This document shows positions 8,699 to 31,341 of a DNA stretch of 32,530 nt, in pieces. Origin of the DNA: a virus (lineage: Duplodnaviria > Caudoviricetes); the IMG/VR virus record IMGVR_UViG_3300032285_001165, positions 1-32,530 of that record, one strand, 5' to 3'. Position numbers and translations under genes: made by a program. The notes under the pieces were generated by a model. That model searched no databases, was not told where the DNA came from, and saw nothing but the letters and a program-made list of their open reading frames with translations. The first letter of the stretch is position 1. Each line of letters opens with the position of its first letter.

Positions 8699-8778
8699 AT
8701 TCGTGATGTCATCTCCGTCATGAATGGCCTTGCAGTGGCCCTTCGCCCCCTCTGCTTCCCTCAGAGGGGGTTTTTTTT
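8699..8778 (+). ncRNA. Candidate 3'-UTR-derived small regulatory RNA (three hairpins)
   Basis: Stems 8699-8708/8716-8725 (loop TCATCTC), 8726-8729/8737-8740 (loop TTGCAGT) and the terminator stem. Loops are complementary to early-gene leaders. Confidence 0.5.
8745..8778 (+). terminator. Rho-independent terminator between convergent operons
   Basis: CCCCCTCTG/CAGAGGGGG 9-bp stem followed by T8. Confidence 0.9.
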
Positions 8779-9007
8779 ATTTCTTGTTTTCTTGTGTTCT
8801 GACTTCCAGAATCTTGTCAGCGACTAGCGTGTTGTAAGCTCGTGCCACCTCAACGCATGACGCTCTTTCCTCCTTTATCAACACAGGTTTTGCCTTGTCG
8901 ATGATTGCGTTAGCAAGCTTGACGAGGTCGTCTTCAAGGAAGTTGTAGTTCTCTTCCAAGTGAGCATTGACGAATGCTTCTGTGATCTCTTGTTTGGTTA
9001 GTGTCAT
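8777..9007 (-). CDS. Hypothetical protein
   Basis: MTLTKQEIT start overlaps the stop of the upstream CmoA-like gene (ATGA). Confidence 0.7.
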   Translation of the reverse strand: MTLTKQEITEAFVNAHLEENYNFLEDDLVKLANAIIDKAKPVLIKEERASCVEVARAYNTLVADKILEVRTQENKK

Positions 9008-9654
9008 TTCTCTATCACCCATCCTTTAAATTCTCCAAGTTGAAAAAATTGTTTTGCTTTGTAATTGCGTAGGAGCTTTGGATCCAAGGGTCGTTGAACC
9101 CCTGAGAGACTCAGCTCTTTACTCAATATCTCTTCAGGTTTCGCACCGTTCTCAAGCTTCCAGAACATTGTCAGACGCTTCATTACGGTGGAGAAATACC
9201 CTGATTCATCCGTCACCTTGTCCACGATGATGATGGCTCCTCCTACATTCAAGTTGTAGTAGAGGGTTTCCAAAAAGTCTTTGTGGTAGAAGACAGGGAT
9301 GAACATGGCAGTCAGCATCACAACCGCAACATCAAAAGAGTCGTAGTTGTGTTCTTCTGCAAACTCCTGACACACGGTGACATTTGGTTTGGCAAGAAAG
9401 CGTGAGTATGCCTGCACCATAGATTTCTCTGGCTCGATACCTATGATGCGTGCATCACGCTCTTCCACCACATCCATCATCGCCATGGTCATGTTCCCAG
9501 TGGAGCACCCAATGTCGTACACCAGACCTTCTCTGCGAAGGTAGTTGCGGACAATGAATGCGACTGAGGTGGTGACCAGCTCGTACCATGGAAGTTGTTC
9601 CCTGACATGGGAGTCAAACCCTTGGGCAAACTCATCGAAAGTCCAGTCTTTCAT
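9004..9654 (-). CDS. cmoA: CmoA-like SAM-dependent enzyme (putative carboxy-SAM synthase)
   Basis: WTFD..A..FDSHVREQLPWY and VYDIGCSTG match the CmoA N-terminus and SAM-binding motif. ATG 9654 overlaps the MTase stop. Confidence 0.75.
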   Translation of the reverse strand: MKDWTFDEFAQGFDSHVREQLPWYELVTTSVAFIVRNYLRREGLVYDIGCSTGNMTMAMMDVVEERDARIIGIEPEKSMVQAYSRFLAKPNVTVCQEFAEEHNYDSFDVAVVMLTAMFIPVFYHKDFLETLYYNLNVGGAIIIVDKVTDESGYFSTVMKRLTMFWKLENGAKPEEILSKELSLSGVQRPLDPKLLRNYKAKQFFQLGEFKGWVIEK

Positions 9655-10769
9655 ATGTGGATCCTCTTTGCAATTTCGTAGATGACATTGACAGTCACCG
9701 CACGACCACAACGCTCATAACGCTGTGCGTCAGGTACCAGTGAACCGTCTGCGTACCACTTCGTCCAGTTATCGGGTAGCGACTGAAGCCTCTCACATTC
9801 CAAAGGGGTGAGCTTTCTCAGCGATGTCCCGACCATCAGACCGTGGCGGTCTTGTGCAGTCAGAGTAAAGACTGGTTCGTTGTGATCTTTGATACGACGA
9901 CCGTTCTGTCTTTTCTCTTCTCTGTGGGGGGTAAGAACAGGGCGCACTTGCATCACTGCACCACGCCCTTGGTTGTTCTGAATACCCTTCCAGTAGTGCC
10001 CATCGAGGGTTGGGAACACATCACGGGTTTCCATCACCTTACCAGTGACAAATGGGACATTGTTCCCACCTGTACCCATGTTTGCGGTCAGCGTGGGAGT
10101 GTGGTCACCCTTTATGTCTCTGAAGTGGTTTCGTCGCCAATGAGTTGCTCGAACAGATCCCCCTGAATCAGGTTGATCTCCTTCTCCTTCGTGATCAGCT
10201 TCTTGTCGTTCGTCTTGTCCAGCATCCTCTGCAACGCACTCTCCGAGAGGAAATACTTTGGGTCTGGGTCTTCCTCTAAGATGTCCGACAATGAATACTC
10301 GCTCCCTGTTCTGTGGGACTCCGAAATTCTTGCTGTTAACACACTCCCACTGGCAGTCATACCCCAGTTCATCCAGACTTGCGAGGATAACTGCAAAGGT
10401 TCTCCCACCGTCGTGGTTGAGAAGTCCTTTGACATTTTCAAGGAATACATATGGGATTCTTTTACTACCGAGGATTCGGCAGATCTCAAAGAAGAGAGTA
10501 CCTCGTGTATCTTCGGTGTTGAACCCTGTTCTTCTTCCTGCAACTGAGAAAGTTGCACACGGAAATCCTCCAACGAGCAGATCGCATTCGGGGATCTCGT
10601 CAGGTTGAATGGTTCGTATGTCTCGTCCATCGGGTTTGTGTTTGAAGTTGTGCTCATAAATGCTCCCTGCCTTAGGCATGAATTCATTAGCCCACACGCA
10701 CTGGTGACCAGCTCGTTCTAAACCGAGCCTGAAGCCACCAATGCCTGCGAAGAGTTCAATGAACCTCAT
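9651..10769 (-). CDS. C5 cytosine DNA methyltransferase family, candidate carboxymethyltransferase
   Basis: Motifs I (LFAGIGG), IV (GFPC), VI (ENV), VIII (QNRER), IX (RKLTPLECERLQ) and X, which reads GRAV rather than GNAV. Confidence 0.9.
   Translation of the reverse strand: MRFIELFAGIGGFRLGLERAGHQCVWANEFMPKAGSIYEHNFKHKPDGRDIRTIQPDEIPECDLLVGGFPCATFSVAGRRTGFNTEDTRGTLFFEICRILGSKRIPYVFLENVKGLLNHDGGRTFAVILASLDELGYDCQWECVNSKNFGVPQNRERVFIVGHLRGRPRPKVFPLGECVAEDAGQDERQEADHEGEGDQPDSGGSVRATHWRRNHFRDIKGDHTPTLTANMGTGGNNVPFVTGKVMETRDVFPTLDGHYWKGIQNNQGRGAVMQVRPVLTPHREEKRQNGRRIKDHNEPVFTLTAQDRHGLMVGTSLRKLTPLECERLQSLPDNWTKWYADGSLVPDAQRYERCGRAVTVNVIYEIAKRIHI
10112..10657 (-). CDS. Overlapping alternative-frame ORF, M.EcoHK31I beta-polypeptide-like
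   Basis: Same strand, different frame, inside the MTase gene. GGGAG before ATG 10657. Encodes WMNWGM...SLSDILEE..PKYFLS. Confidence 0.6.
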   Translation of the reverse strand: MSTTSNTNPMDETYEPFNLTRSPNAICSLEDFRVQLSQLQEEEQGSTPKIHEVLSSLRSAESSVVKESHMYSLKMSKDFSTTTVGEPLQLSSQVWMNWGMTASGSVLTARISESHRTGSEYSLSDILEEDPDPKYFLSESALQRMLDKTNDKKLITKEKEINLIQGDLFEQLIGDETTSET

Positions 10770-11557
10770 AGACCAAAGTTGTTTTTTAACTGCCAGAAAC
10801 GAAGTAAAGCTTGGAACATCTCCCAGCCCTTGGTCAAGTCTTCCTCAGACCATTCCACGACCTTGATAAGACCGTGGTGGGTGCGTGAGCAAAAGACATT
10901 AGCGCAACGAGCGTGGGGTAAGCCAAGACCATGACGGTACGCTGAGAGTTGCATCAGGTGCTCGTCATACGCTTCCACCTTGTCGTCGGGGCCAAAGTCC
11001 TTCGACTTAGCGTCCAGCACGATACCTGTAGGTGCATGCTCGTCAGCCTTGCAAAACAAGTCCACCTTGCCTCCAAAACCCATGGGTGATGCAAAAGCAC
11101 GCTCGGTGAGCCACGGTTGCATAGGATGGGTTTTGAAGTGGTTGAAGATGGATTCCTCGAATGCTTTGGCAATCTCTTCGTGCTCCACAGGACGCACGCC
11201 CTCGATCCAAGCCTCAATGGATTCGTGGATGCGTGTGCCGACTTCAGCCGCCTGTTTGCCAGTTTCCTTGGAGTCAGCGACGATACGGGCGATGAAGTCT
11301 TTCTCTGTCTCCTCAGGTTTGCGTGGGAGCGTGAGCGCCGCCAACAGCATCTGTTCGTTCTTCCAGACCTCCAGCCCCGGCTTTGCCGAGACTTTCAGCA
11401 CTGTGGTCACTGACGGTACTAGGTTCAGCTTGCGTGCATCACGAAGCGTTGTAGGACGGTCAGAACCATCCTTTGCTTTCACGGTGTACTGTGGCGCTCC
11501 GTCATCTGCACGGTACCAATGAACTGACTCTGCTGACCTTGCAATGATTGTTGTCAT
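10766..11557 (-). CDS. PD-(D/E)XK exonuclease (RecB/Cas4-like, non-CRISPR)
   Basis: PSVTTVL, GTRIH, GKVD...LDAKS and QLSAY motifs. Confidence 0.85.
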   Translation of the reverse strand: MTTIIARSAESVHWYRADDGAPQYTVKAKDGSDRPTTLRDARKLNLVPSVTTVLKVSAKPGLEVWKNEQMLLAALTLPRKPEETEKDFIARIVADSKETGKQAAEVGTRIHESIEAWIEGVRPVEHEEIAKAFEESIFNHFKTHPMQPWLTERAFASPMGFGGKVDLFCKADEHAPTGIVLDAKSKDFGPDDKVEAYDEHLMQLSAYRHGLGLPHARCANVFCSRTHHGLIKVVEWSEEDLTKGWEMFQALLRFWQLKNNFGL

Positions 11558-11686
11558 TTACTTCTCCGATGTTATTTTGATGTTTTTAACTGTGTTGACG
11601 CTGGTATCCACGACTTCAGCCATACTGCCTACGCCATGGGTTGCGACATATAAACCGAGGAAGAACCCCACGAGAAACTGAACCAT
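11558..11686 (-). CDS. Small membrane protein (42 aa, not in ORF track)
   Basis: MVQFLVGFFLGLYVATHG... with GAGGAG RBS, fills the gap in the operon exactly. Confidence 0.65.
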   Translation of the reverse strand: MVQFLVGFFLGLYVATHGVGSMAEVVDTSVNTVKNIKITSEK

Positions 11687-11696
11687 GGTGTCCTCC

Positions 11697-11966
11697 TCAG
11701 AGTGATAGACGAAGCTTAGGCATGCATTGAACATCGATGATGATGTCCGACATCATTCCTGAGATCAGTCGCTTGGTCATGATGGGTACTGCTCTCATGC
11801 CATTACCCTCACACTCGTGAGTCGCTTGAATGACTTCGTTGCGACTCATCTGTTGTGCTCTGGGATCCACCACGAGCTGTACAGCAGGCGCAGAGGAATA
11901 CTTATGTGCAGGTGGTGATGATCCACAACCCACTAGTAAAAGCGGGATAAGCAATAGTTTTTTCAT
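11697..11966 (-). CDS. Putative lipoprotein
   Basis: MKKLLLIPLLLVGC signal with lipobox, AGGAGG RBS. Confidence 0.75.
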   Translation of the reverse strand: MKKLLLIPLLLVGCGSSPPAHKYSSAPAVQLVVDPRAQQMSRNEVIQATHECEGNGMRAVPIMTKRLISGMMSDIIIDVQCMPKLRLSL

Positions 11967-11974
11967 GTTTCCTC

Positions 11975-12628
11975 CTAGAAAGGAATATCGTCGTCTTCGT
12001 CAAAGCCAGTACTAATCGGATTAGTAGTAACTTGAGCTGGCGCTGATTGTTTGCCTTGCAACTTCTCCCACTCAGGCGAAGACTGGATCTTTGCTTTGAG
12101 GTGGTCGCTAAACTTCTCAAACATTGCCATGTCTGGCGTTTGGAGGTTGAACAGCTCGTTGGCATTGACAGGTTGTGGGAGACCGTTCTGCTTGATGATT
12201 GCTGGGACTGGAGTGACACCATCCACATTGGAGTAGGTCTTACCGTTCTGACCTGCACGCTCGATGATGTTCAACATGCACCATGCACCCAACACATTTT
12301 TGAGATCGAACTTACGCATCTCTTCTTGAGTAAAAGGTTTGCCACGCCATGACTGGAGGTCTAAGCGCAAGTTAGCCTTCTCTGACCAACTGAAGGTGTA
12401 ATTCTTGAAGATTGCAAACGGGCGACCGTCCATCATCTTCAATTGCTTACCGTTGTCGTCTGTACCGTGGATTTCCCAACCCACCATGATTTTGTGCAGG
12501 TACTTGGTTTGACCCATGTACTCGGACTTTTGCGTGCCCAAGTCCACAATTCGGTAGCACCGTGCGAGGTGCATACCAGAGGGGCAACGCTCGAATGAAC
12601 CGCCCGTATCTTCAACAATGAAACTCAT
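11975..12628 (-). CDS. Putative ssDNA-binding protein
   Basis: Acidic C-terminal tip DEDDDIPF typical of SSBs, same operon as the exonuclease. Confidence 0.65.
   Translation of the reverse strand: MSFIVEDTGGSFERCPSGMHLARCYRIVDLGTQKSEYMGQTKYLHKIMVGWEIHGTDDNGKQLKMMDGRPFAIFKNYTFSWSEKANLRLDLQSWRGKPFTQEEMRKFDLKNVLGAWCMLNIIERAGQNGKTYSNVDGVTPVPAIIKQNGLPQPVNANELFNLQTPDMAMFEKFSDHLKAKIQSSPEWEKLQGKQSAPAQVTTNPISTGFDEDDDIPF
12010..12026. repeat. Palindrome A, TACTAATCGGATTAGTA (copy 1 of 5)
   Basis: Direct read. Other copies at 13452, 19677, 24095 and 26633. Confidence 0.85.
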
Positions 12629-16988: not shown

Positions 16989-17630
16989 ATGGATCAATTG
17001 GAAGAATTTCACTACTTCACAACCCCCGTATATGCTGTGAAGAAACCAGAATTTCTTGAACCGATACGCAATGTATCGAAGAAGTACTTGGACAAATCCA
17101 AGTCACGAATAGCAAAGAACAAGAACCCCATGATGGTCATGACGACCAACTTCTCCCTTGATCCTGATGCGAGTGAGTTTGCTCAGTATGTCTCCCAGAC
17201 AGCGTGGAACATCCTGAATGCTCAGGGATACAACATGGATAACTTGGTGACTTTCTTCACTGAGATGTGGACGCAAGAGCACAACTTCCATTCCAGCATG
17301 GATACGCATGTGCATGGTGGTGGATCGCAAATCAGTGCGTTCTATTTTCTGGATGTACCAGAGAACTCATGCAAGATGGTGATCCATGATCCACGAGCAG
17401 GTAAGGTGATGATCAACCTGCCACAGAAGGATGCCAACGCAGTCACACCAGCGTCTGAGCGGATTGTGTTTGCTCCTGAAGCTGGCGCATTGATCATGTG
17501 CCCAGCATGGTTACCACACCAGTTCACACGCAACCTGAACAAGACTAAGCCAGTGCACTTCGTTCACATGAATATCGCTGTGACACACGCACCTGAACAA
17601 CAACAAGAACCCAATGTGGAAATCATATGA
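16989..17630 (+). CDS. 2OG-Fe(II) oxygenase family protein (TIGR02466-like)
   Basis: FTTPVY, HVH...ISAFYFL, DPR, PAWLPH. Confidence 0.8.
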   Translation: MDQLEEFHYFTTPVYAVKKPEFLEPIRNVSKKYLDKSKSRIAKNKNPMMVMTTNFSLDPDASEFAQYVSQTAWNILNAQGYNMDNLVTFFTEMWTQEHNFHSSMDTHVHGGGSQISAFYFLDVPENSCKMVIHDPRAGKVMINLPQKDANAVTPASERIVFAPEAGALIMCPAWLPHQFTRNLNKTKPVHFVHMNIAVTHAPEQQQEPNVEII

Positions 17631-26925: not shown

Positions 26926-29445
26926 ATGAAGAAAAAGCCCTCCACCAAACAGATGCGACAGGAACTTCGTCAGAAGGGCTTGGATGCATTCTTGAAGGAT
27001 AGCAAGATCAAAGAGCGTTTGTATCACGCTACCCCAGCTAACTTCAAAGAGTTCAAACCCGGTGGGAAAGACCCAACCATGAGCGGTAAAGCGATATGGA
27101 TGTCGATGGATCCTGAGAGACAACCCGCCGCGCACAACATCCACAACTACTTTGGCAAAGAACCGTACAAAGAGGGCGTGCATGTCATGCCCTTGCATGT
27201 CCAAGCCAAGAATCCAATGGTGCTTGATGACAAGACCATGATCGAGTGGGCGAGAGAAGCATTCGCTGGTGGAAGCAAAGAGTTCCCAGAACTGTTGACT
27301 CCTGAATGGATCGACGCAGTCAGGAAAGAAGGATATGACAGCATCCACTTTGCCGATCCCTATGACCATGGCGATCCACACGAAGTGATCATGTTTGAAC
27401 CCCATAAGATCAAATCAGCCATCGGCAACCGTGGTACATACGACACAACTAAGAAAGACATCACCAAGGCAAGCGGTGGTGAAGTGTCTGTTGATCAGAT
27501 GCGTCACGAGCTGGTGATGAAAGGACATAGACTCCACCCAGTACGGCACGAAGCCAAAGGTGGAAGCGCCAAAGAGCCCAAGAGCACCGTGAAGGCGTAC
27601 AAGCTGTTCCGTGTGCATGAGAAGCATCCGGGCAAGTTGTTCCCTCTCTTCGTCGATGCCAACACCCCAGTCGAGATGGGCAAGTGGATCGATGCCAAAT
27701 CGGGAGAGATGAAGGGTGACAAGGTAAAGAGCAAGATTGGCCCATTGGCGTATAGACCGGGCTGGCACGCAGGTGATGTACCCGTCGCCACTCACATCGG
27801 TGAGAAGTCCGACCCAGCAAACATGGTGGACATGCCACCAGACACTCGTCCCCATAATCATGTGTGGGCTGAGATCGAGATGCCCAACGATGTCGATTGG
27901 CAGTCCGTCGCCAACGAGCGTGGTATGAACGCCAAGGGCAAGCTCATCGCACGCAACGCACACATCACTGACCAGATACCCAAGGGCGGTCACTACCGAT
28001 ACAAGACCAACTCCAACATGACTGGTAACTGGCTCATTGGTGGATCGATGAAGGTCAACCGCATACTGGGTGACAAAGAGGTCGAGCGCATCAATAAGAA
28101 GGCAGGCGTAGCAGATCTACCTCGTGCCCAACCGTTCAATAAAAAAGCATTCGGACTGGCTTCTGGTGGTGGTGTCGGTGGCATCGCTCCTGAGGAATGG
28201 GTCGCTGAAGAGCATGTAAACCATCTCATATCAGATGGCGCACTCAAGATGTCTAAGGGTGGAAGCATGGCAGAGCTCATGCACCACATACGAGAGATTG
28301 AAGGCAAGTATGGTGCCGATCGCCTACAGCGTGCACTGGACGAGATCCCCAACCTAGAGCACATGTTCGACTACGACGCATTGCGTCAGGCATTCAGTGG
28401 TGACAACGCTAAAGCGCTCATGACCATGAACCCTGCTGACTTTGAGAAGTATGCAACGCAGTTGAAGGGAAACCAAACAACAGGCGCACACACACCTAGT
28501 CTGGAAGAAAGAATCAAAGGGCACAAGGCACATAAGACCGACCTGTCAACAGAAGACTATGTCAAGTACCTGCAACAAATTAACAAGTTCAGAGACATCC
28601 CGTTTCTACAGATTGACAAGGAAGAGGTGGGCTTACCACTGACTCCGTTTATCTCTGGGCACGAAGGTCGTCACCGTAGCAGGTCGATGGCAGGTCGTGG
28701 CGTGGATAAGAGTCTAGTGATCCTTCACCCCCGCTCAGAATTGCGTGAACCCTTCCCTCGTCGTTACCGTGACGAGTACATTGACGCATTGAAGAAAGAG
28801 CTGGAGATGACCAACAACATGGTCAAGCCTCAGCAAGACAAGTCGAACCCACGCCCAGCGATCAAGATGCCTGACATCTATGCATCAGGTGGTGATGTGC
28901 ACCCCATGGGGATCAATGTCAAGACCGACAAGAAAGCTGGGCTTAGATATGCTGACCTGATTGTGGATGGACACAAGAAATTTGAAAGCCGTAATGGTGA
29001 CACCTTGCGTCCCTATGTGGGCAAGCGTGTAGCAATCGTCAGGACGGGCGAGGGCCCTGCCAAAGCAATCGGTGAGGTCACAGTCGGTGATCCTATGGTT
29101 GTCAACCGTAGGCAGTTCCGATCAATGGAGAGGCATCACCTAGTCCCAGAGGGTTCAGCGTTTGACATCCAGACAGAGACCAAGCACTTGTACCCAATGC
29201 ACAACCCTGTGAGATATGAGAAAGAGCGTGATGTCGGGCATGGCATCGTTGCACGCAAAGTTATCCACAAACAAACAGGTGGTGGCATTCCACCTGCTAC
29301 ACGATTAGCACTGGACGCACTGAGAGCACAAGCTCAAGCACGAGCACAACTCATGGATCAATACAACAAAGACACGGCAGGGATGTACACACATCAGATG
29401 CCGTCCTTCCAACAATGGTTGGCACAGCGCCAGCAAACAAACTAG
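26926..29445 (+). CDS. Multidomain polyvalent-type protein: ADP-ribosyltransferase-like, unknown domain, ParB/Srx-like and ASCH
   Basis: LYHAT...KNP...GYDSI...EVIMFEPHKIKSAIGN (ART-PolyVal pattern), GHEGRHR, YADLIVDGHKKFESR (ASCH pattern). Confidence 0.7.
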   Translation: MKKKPSTKQMRQELRQKGLDAFLKDSKIKERLYHATPANFKEFKPGGKDPTMSGKAIWMSMDPERQPAAHNIHNYFGKEPYKEGVHVMPLHVQAKNPMVLDDKTMIEWAREAFAGGSKEFPELLTPEWIDAVRKEGYDSIHFADPYDHGDPHEVIMFEPHKIKSAIGNRGTYDTTKKDITKASGGEVSVDQMRHELVMKGHRLHPVRHEAKGGSAKEPKSTVKAYKLFRVHEKHPGKLFPLFVDANTPVEMGKWIDAKSGEMKGDKVKSKIGPLAYRPGWHAGDVPVATHIGEKSDPANMVDMPPDTRPHNHVWAEIEMPNDVDWQSVANERGMNAKGKLIARNAHITDQIPKGGHYRYKTNSNMTGNWLIGGSMKVNRILGDKEVERINKKAGVADLPRAQPFNKKAFGLASGGGVGGIAPEEWVAEEHVNHLISDGALKMSKGGSMAELMHHIREIEGKYGADRLQRALDEIPNLEHMFDYDALRQAFSGDNAKALMTMNPADFEKYATQLKGNQTTGAHTPSLEERIKGHKAHKTDLSTEDYVKYLQQINKFRDIPFLQIDKEEVGLPLTPFISGHEGRHRSRSMAGRGVDKSLVILHPRSELREPFPRRYRDEYIDALKKELEMTNNMVKPQQDKSNPRPAIKMPDIYASGGDVHPMGINVKTDKKAGLRYADLIVDGHKKFESRNGDTLRPYVGKRVAIVRTGEGPAKAIGEVTVGDPMVVNRRQFRSMERHHLVPEGSAFDIQTETKHLYPMHNPVRYEKERDVGHGIVARKVIHKQTGGGIPPATRLALDALRAQAQARAQLMDQYNKDTAGMYTHQMPSFQQWLAQRQQTN

Positions 29446-29454
29446 GAAATCATC

Positions 29455-31341
29455 GTGAGCTTATTCGACTACGACAATTCCGAGCATGTCAGAAAGATCG
29501 CTGAACATCTCGCAAAGCACAAAAGCTTCAACAAGGTTCCAGACGCTCCCAAGCACTTGGGTGAAATGCTTTCGACAGGTAACTATCGACTCATGGAAGA
29601 TCCACGCACCCAGCAAGCAATGCGTAAAGCAGGTCATACTGGATACCACACGATGGAAAAGACTGGGAAGACACGCAACGCAATCCCACCATATATCGCA
29701 CACAAAGCTATCGGAGGAAGCATGGACGAACCAGCACACTCTCCATCACTGGCGCAAATGCGTCTACAGATCAACCAACACGCTAACCCTGCTCTGATGG
29801 ACAGCATTGGCGTGAATGAAGCTCTGGACATGGATCCCAAGATTTACATGAACCCTGATCCTCAAAAGACTGGCATGTCCTCTGTTGGTGGTGTAGCTGA
29901 TAGCAATGGCTTACCTGTCGGTGGTATCGACCAGAACCCCATGCAAGCTGGATCGCAATTGCTTCCGAACGCACTGGTTCAGCAACAGCAACAAGACCAG
30001 CAACAGCAAGGTCAAATTGGCGCTGGCGCACCTCAACAAGGTGGCACACCTCCTAACGCTCCACAGGGTCAGACACCACCCATGGGCAACATGCTATCGA
30101 TGACTCCCCAAGGTCAAGCACTGGGTGCGATGAAACCCCCTGCCCAGCCACAAGGACTTGCTGGTGGTGGTCAACCCAAAGAGCAACCCATCAAGATCAT
30201 GAAGAAGGAAGACTGGCAGTATGACGACTCACATCCAAGCACTGCCAATCTGTCACGAGCATTCAGAGAAGCGATAGATCACCATTTGAGCTTGTCACCT
30301 GAAGATCGCATGACCAATACGCACCTCGCTGAAGAAGGCGTAGCAGAACACATCGGTCGTGCCAAGACTGGCAAGATGAAGGGACGCTCACGAGACCTGC
30401 TAGGTAAGAACGCAAAGCTTCTCAAGTCAGAGAAGGGTAAAGCAGGATATGAACCCGTCACCCTCCCCGACGGGCGTGGCATTGAGACTACTGGTCTGGC
30501 TTTAGCGCCAGCATATGAGGAAGGCAAGTTCAACACCTGCCCCAACCATGCGTCATGCAAAGAGGAGTGTCTGGGCAAGACATCAGGCAACTACTTCAAG
30601 CTGGGTGGTGGGCCCGACCTCGATGCGTTCAAGGGTCCTCGCCTCAACAGCCTGCTCAAGACGCAAGCATTCTTGCGTGACCCACACTCATTTGCTGTGA
30701 AGCTCCACGACGAGATCGAGGCGGCTAAAGGGTTGGCGGCTAAGAACGGCAACCACTTGGGCATGCGATTGAATGTGTTGTCAGACATCAACCCTGAGGT
30801 GTATCGCCCTATCATAGAAGCTCACCCTGATGTGACCTTCTACGACTACACCAAGATGAAGTACAAGCCAATCGCTAAGAACCATCACTACACTTACTCC
30901 AGCACTGGTCTATCAGATGACGAAGTGACTAACCCGCACACCAACTGGCACCAGATGCGTGACCGTCTGGAGAGTGGTGACAATGTAGCGATGGCATTTA
31001 CCCATAAGCGCCACCTACCAAAGAGCGTGTTTGATGAAGAAAGTGGCAAGCACTACGATGTAATCGACGGTGACAGCCATGACTTCCGACCCTTGGACAA
31101 AGTAGCGTCTGGTGAGAAAGGCGTGATTGTTGGATTGAAGAACAAGAAAGCCACGGGTAAAATGGACGAAGCTCATATAGACTCTAACGGATTCTTTGCG
31201 AAGTACGATCCGAAAGAGCAGAAGACTTTGAATGCCAAAGGCAAACCGATCTTCGCAAAAGACAAGAGCGGTCTAACAATACCGACCAACGAAGTGGTTC
31301 ACATCAAACCACAAAAGAAGGTTAAACAAGGAGAAGAATGA
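29455..31341 (+). CDS. Protein with Q/P-rich N-terminal part and Gp88-like (radical-SAM-related) C-terminal domain
   Basis: TCPNHASCKEECL, RLNVLSD, FYDYTK, IDGDSHDFRPLD, IVGLK. Confidence 0.7.
   Translation: MSLFDYDNSEHVRKIAEHLAKHKSFNKVPDAPKHLGEMLSTGNYRLMEDPRTQQAMRKAGHTGYHTMEKTGKTRNAIPPYIAHKAIGGSMDEPAHSPSLAQMRLQINQHANPALMDSIGVNEALDMDPKIYMNPDPQKTGMSSVGGVADSNGLPVGGIDQNPMQAGSQLLPNALVQQQQQDQQQQGQIGAGAPQQGGTPPNAPQGQTPPMGNMLSMTPQGQALGAMKPPAQPQGLAGGGQPKEQPIKIMKKEDWQYDDSHPSTANLSRAFREAIDHHLSLSPEDRMTNTHLAEEGVAEHIGRAKTGKMKGRSRDLLGKNAKLLKSEKGKAGYEPVTLPDGRGIETTGLALAPAYEEGKFNTCPNHASCKEECLGKTSGNYFKLGGGPDLDAFKGPRLNSLLKTQAFLRDPHSFAVKLHDEIEAAKGLAAKNGNHLGMRLNVLSDINPEVYRPIIEAHPDVTFYDYTKMKYKPIAKNHHYTYSSTGLSDDEVTNPHTNWHQMRDRLESGDNVAMAFTHKRHLPKSVFDEESGKHYDVIDGDSHDFRPLDKVASGEKGVIVGLKNKKATGKMDEAHIDSNGFFAKYDPKEQKTLNAKGKPIFAKDKSGLTIPTNEVVHIKPQKKVKQGEE

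Follow-up and report, generated by a model that had tools for sequence, protein, structure and literature searches.

Does an overlapping pair of genes in a tailed phage supply carboxy-S-adenosylmethionine (carboxy-SAM, or Cx-SAM) and use it to modify the cytosines of the phage DNA? This question is raised by the IMG/VR record IMGVR_UViG_3300032285_001165. The window analyzed here is the entire 32,530-bp contig, which encodes terminase, portal, helicase, and primase genes. The pair is composed of a C5-methyltransferase-family protein, referred to as the alpha chain, and a CmoA-like gene. The initial annotation described an enzyme with an intact catalytic PC, an ENV motif, and an Arg in motif X, whose stop codon overlaps the ATG of the CmoA-like gene, and proposed that the phage makes its own cofactor and carboxymethylates its DNA. 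The pair is present as described (the TGA at 9653-9651 overlaps the ATG at 9654-9652), and the proposed activity is supported: phage S-B43 has been shown to carry out the predicted chemistry (PMC12783734), and both the mapping of the Arg and the linkage of the two genes agree with it. What had been overlooked is a gene nested within the alpha gene, the separate lineage of the enzyme, and the non-canonical nature of the CmoA homologue.

In phage S-B43, CmoA makes carboxy-SAM, CmoX carboxymethylates cytosine in GC, and CmoY adds glycine (Yang et al. 2025, PMC12783734). The S-B43 system bears out the caution, also voiced at the outset, that the chemistry may not be wholly new. A categorically new DNA base is rejected because the modification itself was published in 2025 (PMC12783734); what differs is a lineage, probably two-chain, with a GFPC catalytic motif. 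We place the probability that the overlapping genes form a CmoA-CmoX-type pathway at about 0.8, a prediction made from sequence and by analogy with S-B43.

In the predicted pathway, the CmoA homologue would make carboxy-SAM, with prephenate supplying the CO2, as modeled on SpCmoX and SpCmoA. The alpha chain, probably paired with the nested beta protein, would then carboxymethylate DNA cytosines at C5. By analogy with SpCmoX, Cys71 would attack C6 and Arg356 would hold the carboxylate of the cofactor. Ala72 would open room in the pocket and disfavor plain SAM. Less firmly, Arg160 of the CmoA homologue may stand in for the missing Arg199 of CmoA, several short sites may be targeted, and the purpose may be protection from restriction.

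The cofactor pocket of the alpha chain

The alpha chain is a full-length C5 methyltransferase by Pfam search (PF00145, E 5e-80, residues 1-370) and contains the motifs GGFPC (C71) and FLENV. In a structure model of alpha alone, residues 177-317 are unresolved. The motif X Arg maps to the Asn of the SAM pocket, as had been proposed. Arg356 aligns with N304 of M.HhaI, in a second aligned stretch that is weak alone (independent E-value 0.31) but has motifs IX and X in register, and it aligns with R350 of SpCmoX. The SpCmoX residues F25, E47, F48, D69, C98, and R350 correspond to F7, E29, F30, D50, C71, and R356 of alpha, and all six are identical. In SpCmoX, Arg350 occupies the HhaI Asn304 position and contacts the Cx-SAM carboxylate, and the wild-type enzyme accepts only Cx-SAM, not SAM (PMC12783734).

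Arg is found at position 356 in all 120 of the best homologs retrieved with query residues 170-372, though this result is biased because the query contained motif X. With an N-terminal-only query, Arg is confined to ranks 1-11 of 150 cluster representatives, and Asn is found in 98. Judged by these alignments, the Arg at motif X of alpha is not a chance occurrence.

A second pocket position, the residue following the catalytic Cys, was tallied in 541 distinct sequences, with motif X called by pattern, 30 sequences left without a call, and sequences without motif IV skipped. Among GFPC enzymes, Ala follows the Cys in 207 of 211 sequences of the Arg type, and Gln does so in 124 of 127 of the Asn type. 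SPPC enzymes have Ala or Ser in 46/48 of the Arg type and Gln in 34/35 of the Asn type. All 5 Arg-type GSPC enzymes retain Gln. In this tally, the change from Gln to Ala or Ser tracks the Arg in the GFPC and SPPC lineages alike. A third Arg-type lineage (FGSPCQ ... ALGRSMAV; L055, L071, L074, L080, and L085) is located downstream of cmoA, and in it Gln still follows the catalytic Cys.

The same two pocket positions have been changed by engineering. The N436K change of Dcm is reportedly one such substitution, although it was not found in the two papers searched for it. The M.MpeI N374K enzyme, described in the initial annotation as an Asn-to-Lys mutant that uses carboxy-SAM, was confirmed (PMC13288465). 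In M.HhaI, where Q82A and N304A fall at the two positions, Q82A results in 4-fold more activity with a bulkier cofactor and lowers methylation about 16-fold (PMC3526304). In contrast to these engineered enzymes, the alpha chain is natural, possesses Arg rather than Lys or Ala, and is accompanied by its own cofactor gene. If the pathway is as predicted, the switch of cofactor would be plainly convergent and would parallel two engineered mutations.

Linkage to cmoA and the CmoA-like protein

Motif-selected viral loci were compared for linkage with one flank rule throughout (no less than 1.1 kb upstream and 1.5 kb downstream). cmoA adjoins the Arg-type enzyme in 48 of 48 informative loci and lies beside none of the 99 Asn-type controls (0/57 GFPC/GSPC loci and 0/42 SPPC loci), so the expected co-occurrence was found. 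A search begun from motif X alone gave 119 loci, 118 of which encode C5 methyltransferases; 113 show cmoA. The five without cmoA have at most 329 bases downstream, and CmoY begins there in three. For the opposite search, begun from the CmoA subclade of the window protein, the best 80 of 580 confirmed viral loci were retained, one of which (L007) is the same phage as the window. A C5 methyltransferase is present in 74 of these 80 (GFPC 52, SPPC 9, GSPC 6, cut 7), and motif X has Arg in all 73 where it is visible.

CmoY acts on 5-carboxymethylcytosine (5cxmC) (PMC12783734). Five of the 48 informative Arg-type loci have it, and in some GFPC/Arg loci it is next to the methyltransferase or cmoA, including between these two genes. 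A CmoY profile had no match at E 10 on the 32.5-kb contig, which appears incomplete, and no linked Asn-synthetase-like amide ligase was found there. Because no ligase is linked, the final mark probably remains 5cxmC.

The same first step could also lead to a different final base, a 5cxmC derivative made by an unlinked enzyme that was not recognized or whose gene lies in sequence absent from the contig. The contig looks incomplete because it has no terminal repeat and its end falls inside the portal gene, and related contigs reach 54-61 kb. In S-B43, the glycine amide was the only form found in virion DNA (PMC12783734). However, CmoY adjoins the methyltransferase or cmoA where it does occur in this lineage, no CmoY lies in the flanks of 43 of the 48 informative loci, and the profile found none in the window. 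We give such a derivative a small but real chance. An insert of 452 aa precedes cmoA in the SPPC CmoX loci L023, L027, and L039-L041. The L023 insert is a GATase plus Asn-synthase protein, which belongs to the glutamine-type ligase class of Yang et al. 2025 (PMC12783734).

The best PDB sequence matches of the CmoA-like protein are CmoA and YecO (E 8e-15 to 7e-12). Its best NCBIfam match is CmoA TIGR00740 at 72.6 bits, under the 193-bit cut-off; SpCmoA, which is active, likewise falls under it (115.6). The AlphaFold model has a predicted local distance difference test (pLDDT) value of 88 and shows the CmoA fold with lid helices. Its best fold matches are again E. coli CmoA and H. influenzae YecO (4GEK, 4IWN, 1IM8; template modeling score 0.87-0.88). 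Unlike these proteins, to which it is about 22% identical, it has Glu in place of Arg199 and no CmoB partner was seen in the window, where none of the 48 open reading frames (ORFs) scanned is CmoB-like.

Three types of CmoA were distinguished by the position of an Arg. In 117 distinct sequences, Arg160 is present in 76, Lys at position 160 in 1, and the SpCmoA-type Arg in 37, and 3 are nearer the E. coli pattern; Arg160 and the SpCmoA-type Arg never occur together (0/117). The subclade of the window protein is widespread, with 1028 matches at E<=1e-10, and 37 columns are invariant in 100 sequences, Arg160 among them. All three types are found paired with GFPC/Arg methyltransferases. The Arg160 type is found with all three Arg-methyltransferase lineages, and it adjoins SPPC/Arg CmoX in, for example, Moraxella phage Mcat8.

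Points against the predicted pathway, and the lineage of the alpha chain

Several observations weigh against this assignment, and the first of them concern the CmoA homologue. The carboxylate binder of E. coli CmoA is Arg199 (PMC3663124). The window protein has Glu180 at this position, has Ser184 where SpCmoA places its Arg, four residues further on, and is only 21% identical to SpCmoA. That the protein is dead for want of Arg199 was considered, and this view is weakened: active SpCmoA also has Glu there, so Arg199 is not required for activity. An active synthase with a moved arginine, as the conserved Arg160 suggests, is the weakest link of the whole reading. Alternatively, an Arg160-type CmoA may make a different SAM derivative or be inactive, with the transferase using that derivative or the carboxy-SAM of the host. 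Both known positions of the carboxylate-binding Arg lack it, and Thr-Met takes the place of the lid His-His/His-Tyr pair. Set against this are the wide distribution and invariant columns of the subclade, its interchange with SpCmoA-type proteins beside the same methyltransferase clade, and its partnership with SPPC/Arg CmoX and CmoY. We consider this alternative improbable.

The linkage and the DNA composition add further points of this kind. The sequences counted for linkage are related and do not represent independent events. In two loci from staphylococcal phages (L004:4672-5679 and L006:5494-6501), cmoA is paired with a C5 enzyme whose motif X is GGV (Gly-Gly), with no Arg, and one of these loci also has a CmoY homologue (E 6e-36). 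In these GGV enzymes, another residue may hold the carboxylate. Arg160-type cmoA is without a C5 methyltransferase within 5 kb in 41 of 80 bacterial loci. The window contains no ACGT (235 expected), CCWGG (85 expected), or GCWGC (61 expected), which does not show protection by modification. CGCG is strongly depleted (12 vs 190), as is GGCC, and Arg-type loci are depleted in CCWGG, GCWGC, and GGWCC. This depletion fits restriction pressure or the loss of modified sites and does not choose between them.

The cmoA genes without a C5 methyltransferase have recurrent neighbors of their own (L207, L224, L227, L228, L233, L236, L243, L274, L279, and L285 in bacterial genomes; L081:2105-4688 and L044). 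Of 12 bacterial loci inspected, 10 have such a cmoA following a ParB-type protein of ~500 aa, and L209 and L255 show this arrangement only in part; two viral loci have it too. A weak Methyltransf_23 match is found in three of the five ParB-type proteins scanned. A 140-aa HAD-like ORF is often present, and most of these loci are near terminase genes. The ParB-type protein is a candidate for a non-C5 acceptor of carboxy-SAM.

The lineage of the alpha chain also counts on this side. Alpha scores higher with M.HhaI (172 bits) than with SpCmoX (53 bits), and its nearest relatives by the N-terminal domain are Asn-type methyltransferases, with up to 69% identity. The 5,615 candidates of Yang et al. 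were filtered by SPPC plus Arg350 (PMC12783734). Alpha has the Arg and lacks SPPC; with GFPC instead, it is therefore outside this filter, an exclusion that follows from the filter as stated. By its motif, alpha falls outside the SPPC-defined CmoX family. An ordinary, Arg-tolerant enzyme forming 5-methylcytosine, with cmoA serving another role such as tRNA modification, would suit these Asn-type relatives but is very improbable given the 48/48 versus 0/99 linkage, the coupled Gln-to-Ala change, the lack of a CmoB-like gene among the ORFs scanned, and the failure of SpCmoX, with its Arg, to accept SAM (PMC12783734).

In a 61-row tree, GFPC/Arg enzymes form one clade (100/99) within the GFPC Asn-type enzymes (92/96). 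The SPPC Arg and SPPC Asn enzymes form another clade (100/100), and four state changes are needed. A single clade for the Arg groups is rejected in the approximately unbiased test (61 rows, LG+G4), with p 1e-39 when all SPPC Arg enzymes are included and 7e-7 with SpCmoX and Mcat8. In an earlier 51-row set without the Asn-type SPPC relatives, one clade was not rejected (p 0.77), and rejection came only after these relatives were added. The trees were built with LG+G4 and no mixture model, the Arg column and the chimera P0248 were left out, the rows were thinned, and the bootstrap had not settled (0.982). P0248 has a GFPCA N-terminus that is 68% identical to the window enzyme and an SPPC-type C-terminus that is 57% identical to SpCmoX. 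On these trees, the GFPC and SPPC scaffolds are separate, and the lineage of alpha likely adapted independently of SPPC CmoX. The Arg of the GFPC lineage may have originated by a point change or by import through short-patch recombination, both of which are compatible with the trees.

The comparison with S-B43 CmoA-CmoX(-CmoY) (PMC12783734; PDB 8YF3) reflects this history. Shared are the C5-methyltransferase fold, the Arg at HhaI Asn304, the cofactor-pocket residues, the neighboring cmoA, and a small residue following the catalytic Cys (Ser in S-B43, Ala in the window). The window enzyme differs in having GFPC rather than SPPC, in being 29% identical and in a separate clade, and in its modular variable region. 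Its locus has no CmoY or ParB neighbor, encodes another CmoA subtype, and contains a nested beta gene; no such gene was detected at S-B43 or other SPPC loci. If the predicted pathway is correct, 5cxmC would be more common than the published SPPC-based census suggests, and about 180 viral stretches, by estimate, carry the motif X of this lineage.

The nested beta gene, candidate recognition modules, and gene neighborhood

The nested gene is located in the +1 frame of the alpha gene. Its PHROG family, phrog_16143, is annotated as "DNA methyltransferase," and its product is 52% identical over 128 aa to the "C5 methyltransferase beta subunit" of Streptococcus phage MM1 1998. In all 52 dereplicated relatives, the nested frame stays open over at least 130 codons; it starts with ATG in 47, and the +2 frame is never open. 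The third-position entropy of alpha is 0.87 inside the overlap (n=28) compared with 1.79 outside (n=15), and 46 of 20,000 synonymous shuffles leave the nested frame open. Of 57 Asn-type GFPC/GSPC loci, 56 have beta homologues, and the nested gene therefore predates the cofactor switch.

A model of the alpha/beta complex scored 0.81, while the best of 3 controls scored 0.00. The runs share at least 63% of their contacts, and the partner pLDDT is at least 53. Of 157 solved complexes, 116 pass the mark applied to this score, as do 2 of 215 mismatched pairs. In the model, beta residues 97-102 pack on alpha 138-143, and beta 126-135 pack on motif IX. The score may have been helped by likeness to single-chain methyltransferases or by covariation from shared DNA. 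The modeling suggests that beta is probably the partner chain of alpha.

Two known systems resemble this arrangement. In MM1 1998 (DQ113772 orf13/orf14, as annotated), beta also lies in the +1 frame of alpha, and alpha is 39% identical to the window chain. Unlike the window, MM1 1998 has the canonical PCQ and GNSV, has no cmoA in the 5.4 kb viewed, and carries a clamp-like motif, QMTLF, that is N-terminal rather than C-terminal. M.EcoHK31I, likened here by description, also encodes a second chain in another frame inside its alpha gene, and both chains are needed for activity (PMC2836561). Its beta supplies motif IX (PMC2836561), whereas the window alpha keeps motifs IX and X.

The C-terminal motif of the window beta, QGDLF, resembles the sliding-clamp consensus QL(S/D)LF (PMC9690074). 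The strict pattern, which QGDLF does not satisfy, is present in the beta of 19 of 52 relatives and absent from 18,167 aa of their alpha frames. We infer from this motif that the beta tail may bind the sliding clamp. A literature search that left out most subscription journals showed no paper describing a carboxymethyltransferase with GFPC or with two chains, or reporting that a beta chain of this kind binds the clamp. Short members of 304 aa (L026, L028, L059, and L123) have one recognition module and the longest beta tails, and these are the simplest assay candidates.

The T-L pair is a hallmark of target recognition. Three modules with this pair are found in the variable region of alpha, and five types of module are combined in mosaic fashion across 52 relatives. 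The region is of low confidence in the structure model. Multispecific methyltransferases of Bacillus phages possess tandem target-recognition domains with several specificities (PMC8936443). Modules were compared with word depletion in 120 tests. Two associations appeared (p about 1e-3 and 2e-3), both confounded by kinship, and no module-to-site link survived. Should the predicted pathway hold, these would be carboxymethyltransferases from nature whose sequence specificity is modular and possibly exchangeable, a property that the 2025 paper expects only from engineering (PMC12783734). Such enzymes would be of use in deamination-based epigenetic sequencing.

Taken at its fullest, the locus might encode a second, independently evolved two-chain DNA carboxymethyltransferase. 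Its overprinted beta would dock on the host sliding clamp, swappable modules would mark several sequences, and the cofactor would come from a third CmoA design with its Arg on another lid helix. The Asn-to-Arg plus Gln-to-Ala pocket would have been reached at least twice, at the two positions chosen by engineers. This combined picture is tentative and, as a whole, doubtful.

Table 1. Features of the locus in window coordinates.
Feature	Position	Strand	Basis or remark
C5-methyltransferase-family protein, alpha chain, 372 aa, GFPC lineage; predicted DNA cytosine C5-carboxymethyltransferase	9651..10769	-	Pfam, alignments
Catalytic Cys71 and Ala72 (Ala72 at the M.HhaI Gln82 position)	10554..10559	-	Alignment
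Arg356 codon CGT, motif X, at M.HhaI Asn304 / SpCmoX Arg350	9702..9704	-	Alignment
CmoA-like carboxy-SAM synthase homologue, 216 aa	9004..9654	-	Glu180 at E. coli Arg199; Ser184 at SpCmoA Arg; Arg160 invariant in subclade
Nested +1-frame gene, 181 aa, beta-subunit homologue	10112..10657	-	ATG at 10657; GGGAG 10663-10667 upstream; phrog_16143 E 4e-34
QGDLF near the beta C-terminus, sliding-clamp-binding-like	10151..10165	-	One mismatch to QL(S/D)LF
Variable region with three T-L modules, candidate tandem target-recognition units	9840..10097	-	Modules 10065-10097, 9984-10013, 9840-9869; putative role
Upstream same-strand genes	10766..12628	-	Exonuclease-like 10766-11557 (stop overlaps methyltransferase ATG), two small ORFs, NGO0469-family replication protein 11975-12628
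Small 76-aa ORF whose ATG overlaps the stop of cmoA	8777..9007	-	No Pfam/PHROG match; not CmoY
Terminator-like hairpin between convergent structural genes and the minus-strand run	8745..8771	.	Consensus match only, called on + strand

The pair belongs to a minus-strand run (Table 1) composed of the NGO0469-family protein, the exonuclease, the C5 methyltransferase, the CmoA-like gene, the 76-aa ORF, and the terminator-like hairpin. ATGA overlaps join the final four ORFs, from the exonuclease-like gene to the 76-aa ORF. A promoter scan of the window gave fewer sites than in shuffled sequence. A host was sought through bacterial-genome loci, and the GFPC enzyme was present in 0 of 80. A single-protein locus search recovered only the same phage; its locus (L001) is 100% identical and adds nothing beyond the contig ends. 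A 2OG-Fe(II) oxygenase is encoded at 16989-17630 (+). It is unlinked to the methyltransferase/cmoA pair, and there is no evidence that it acts on DNA. Between the terminase and portal genes, two polyvalent-type proteins are encoded at 26926-29445 and 29455-31341 (+), the domains found being ART-PolyVal plus ASCH, and GP88.

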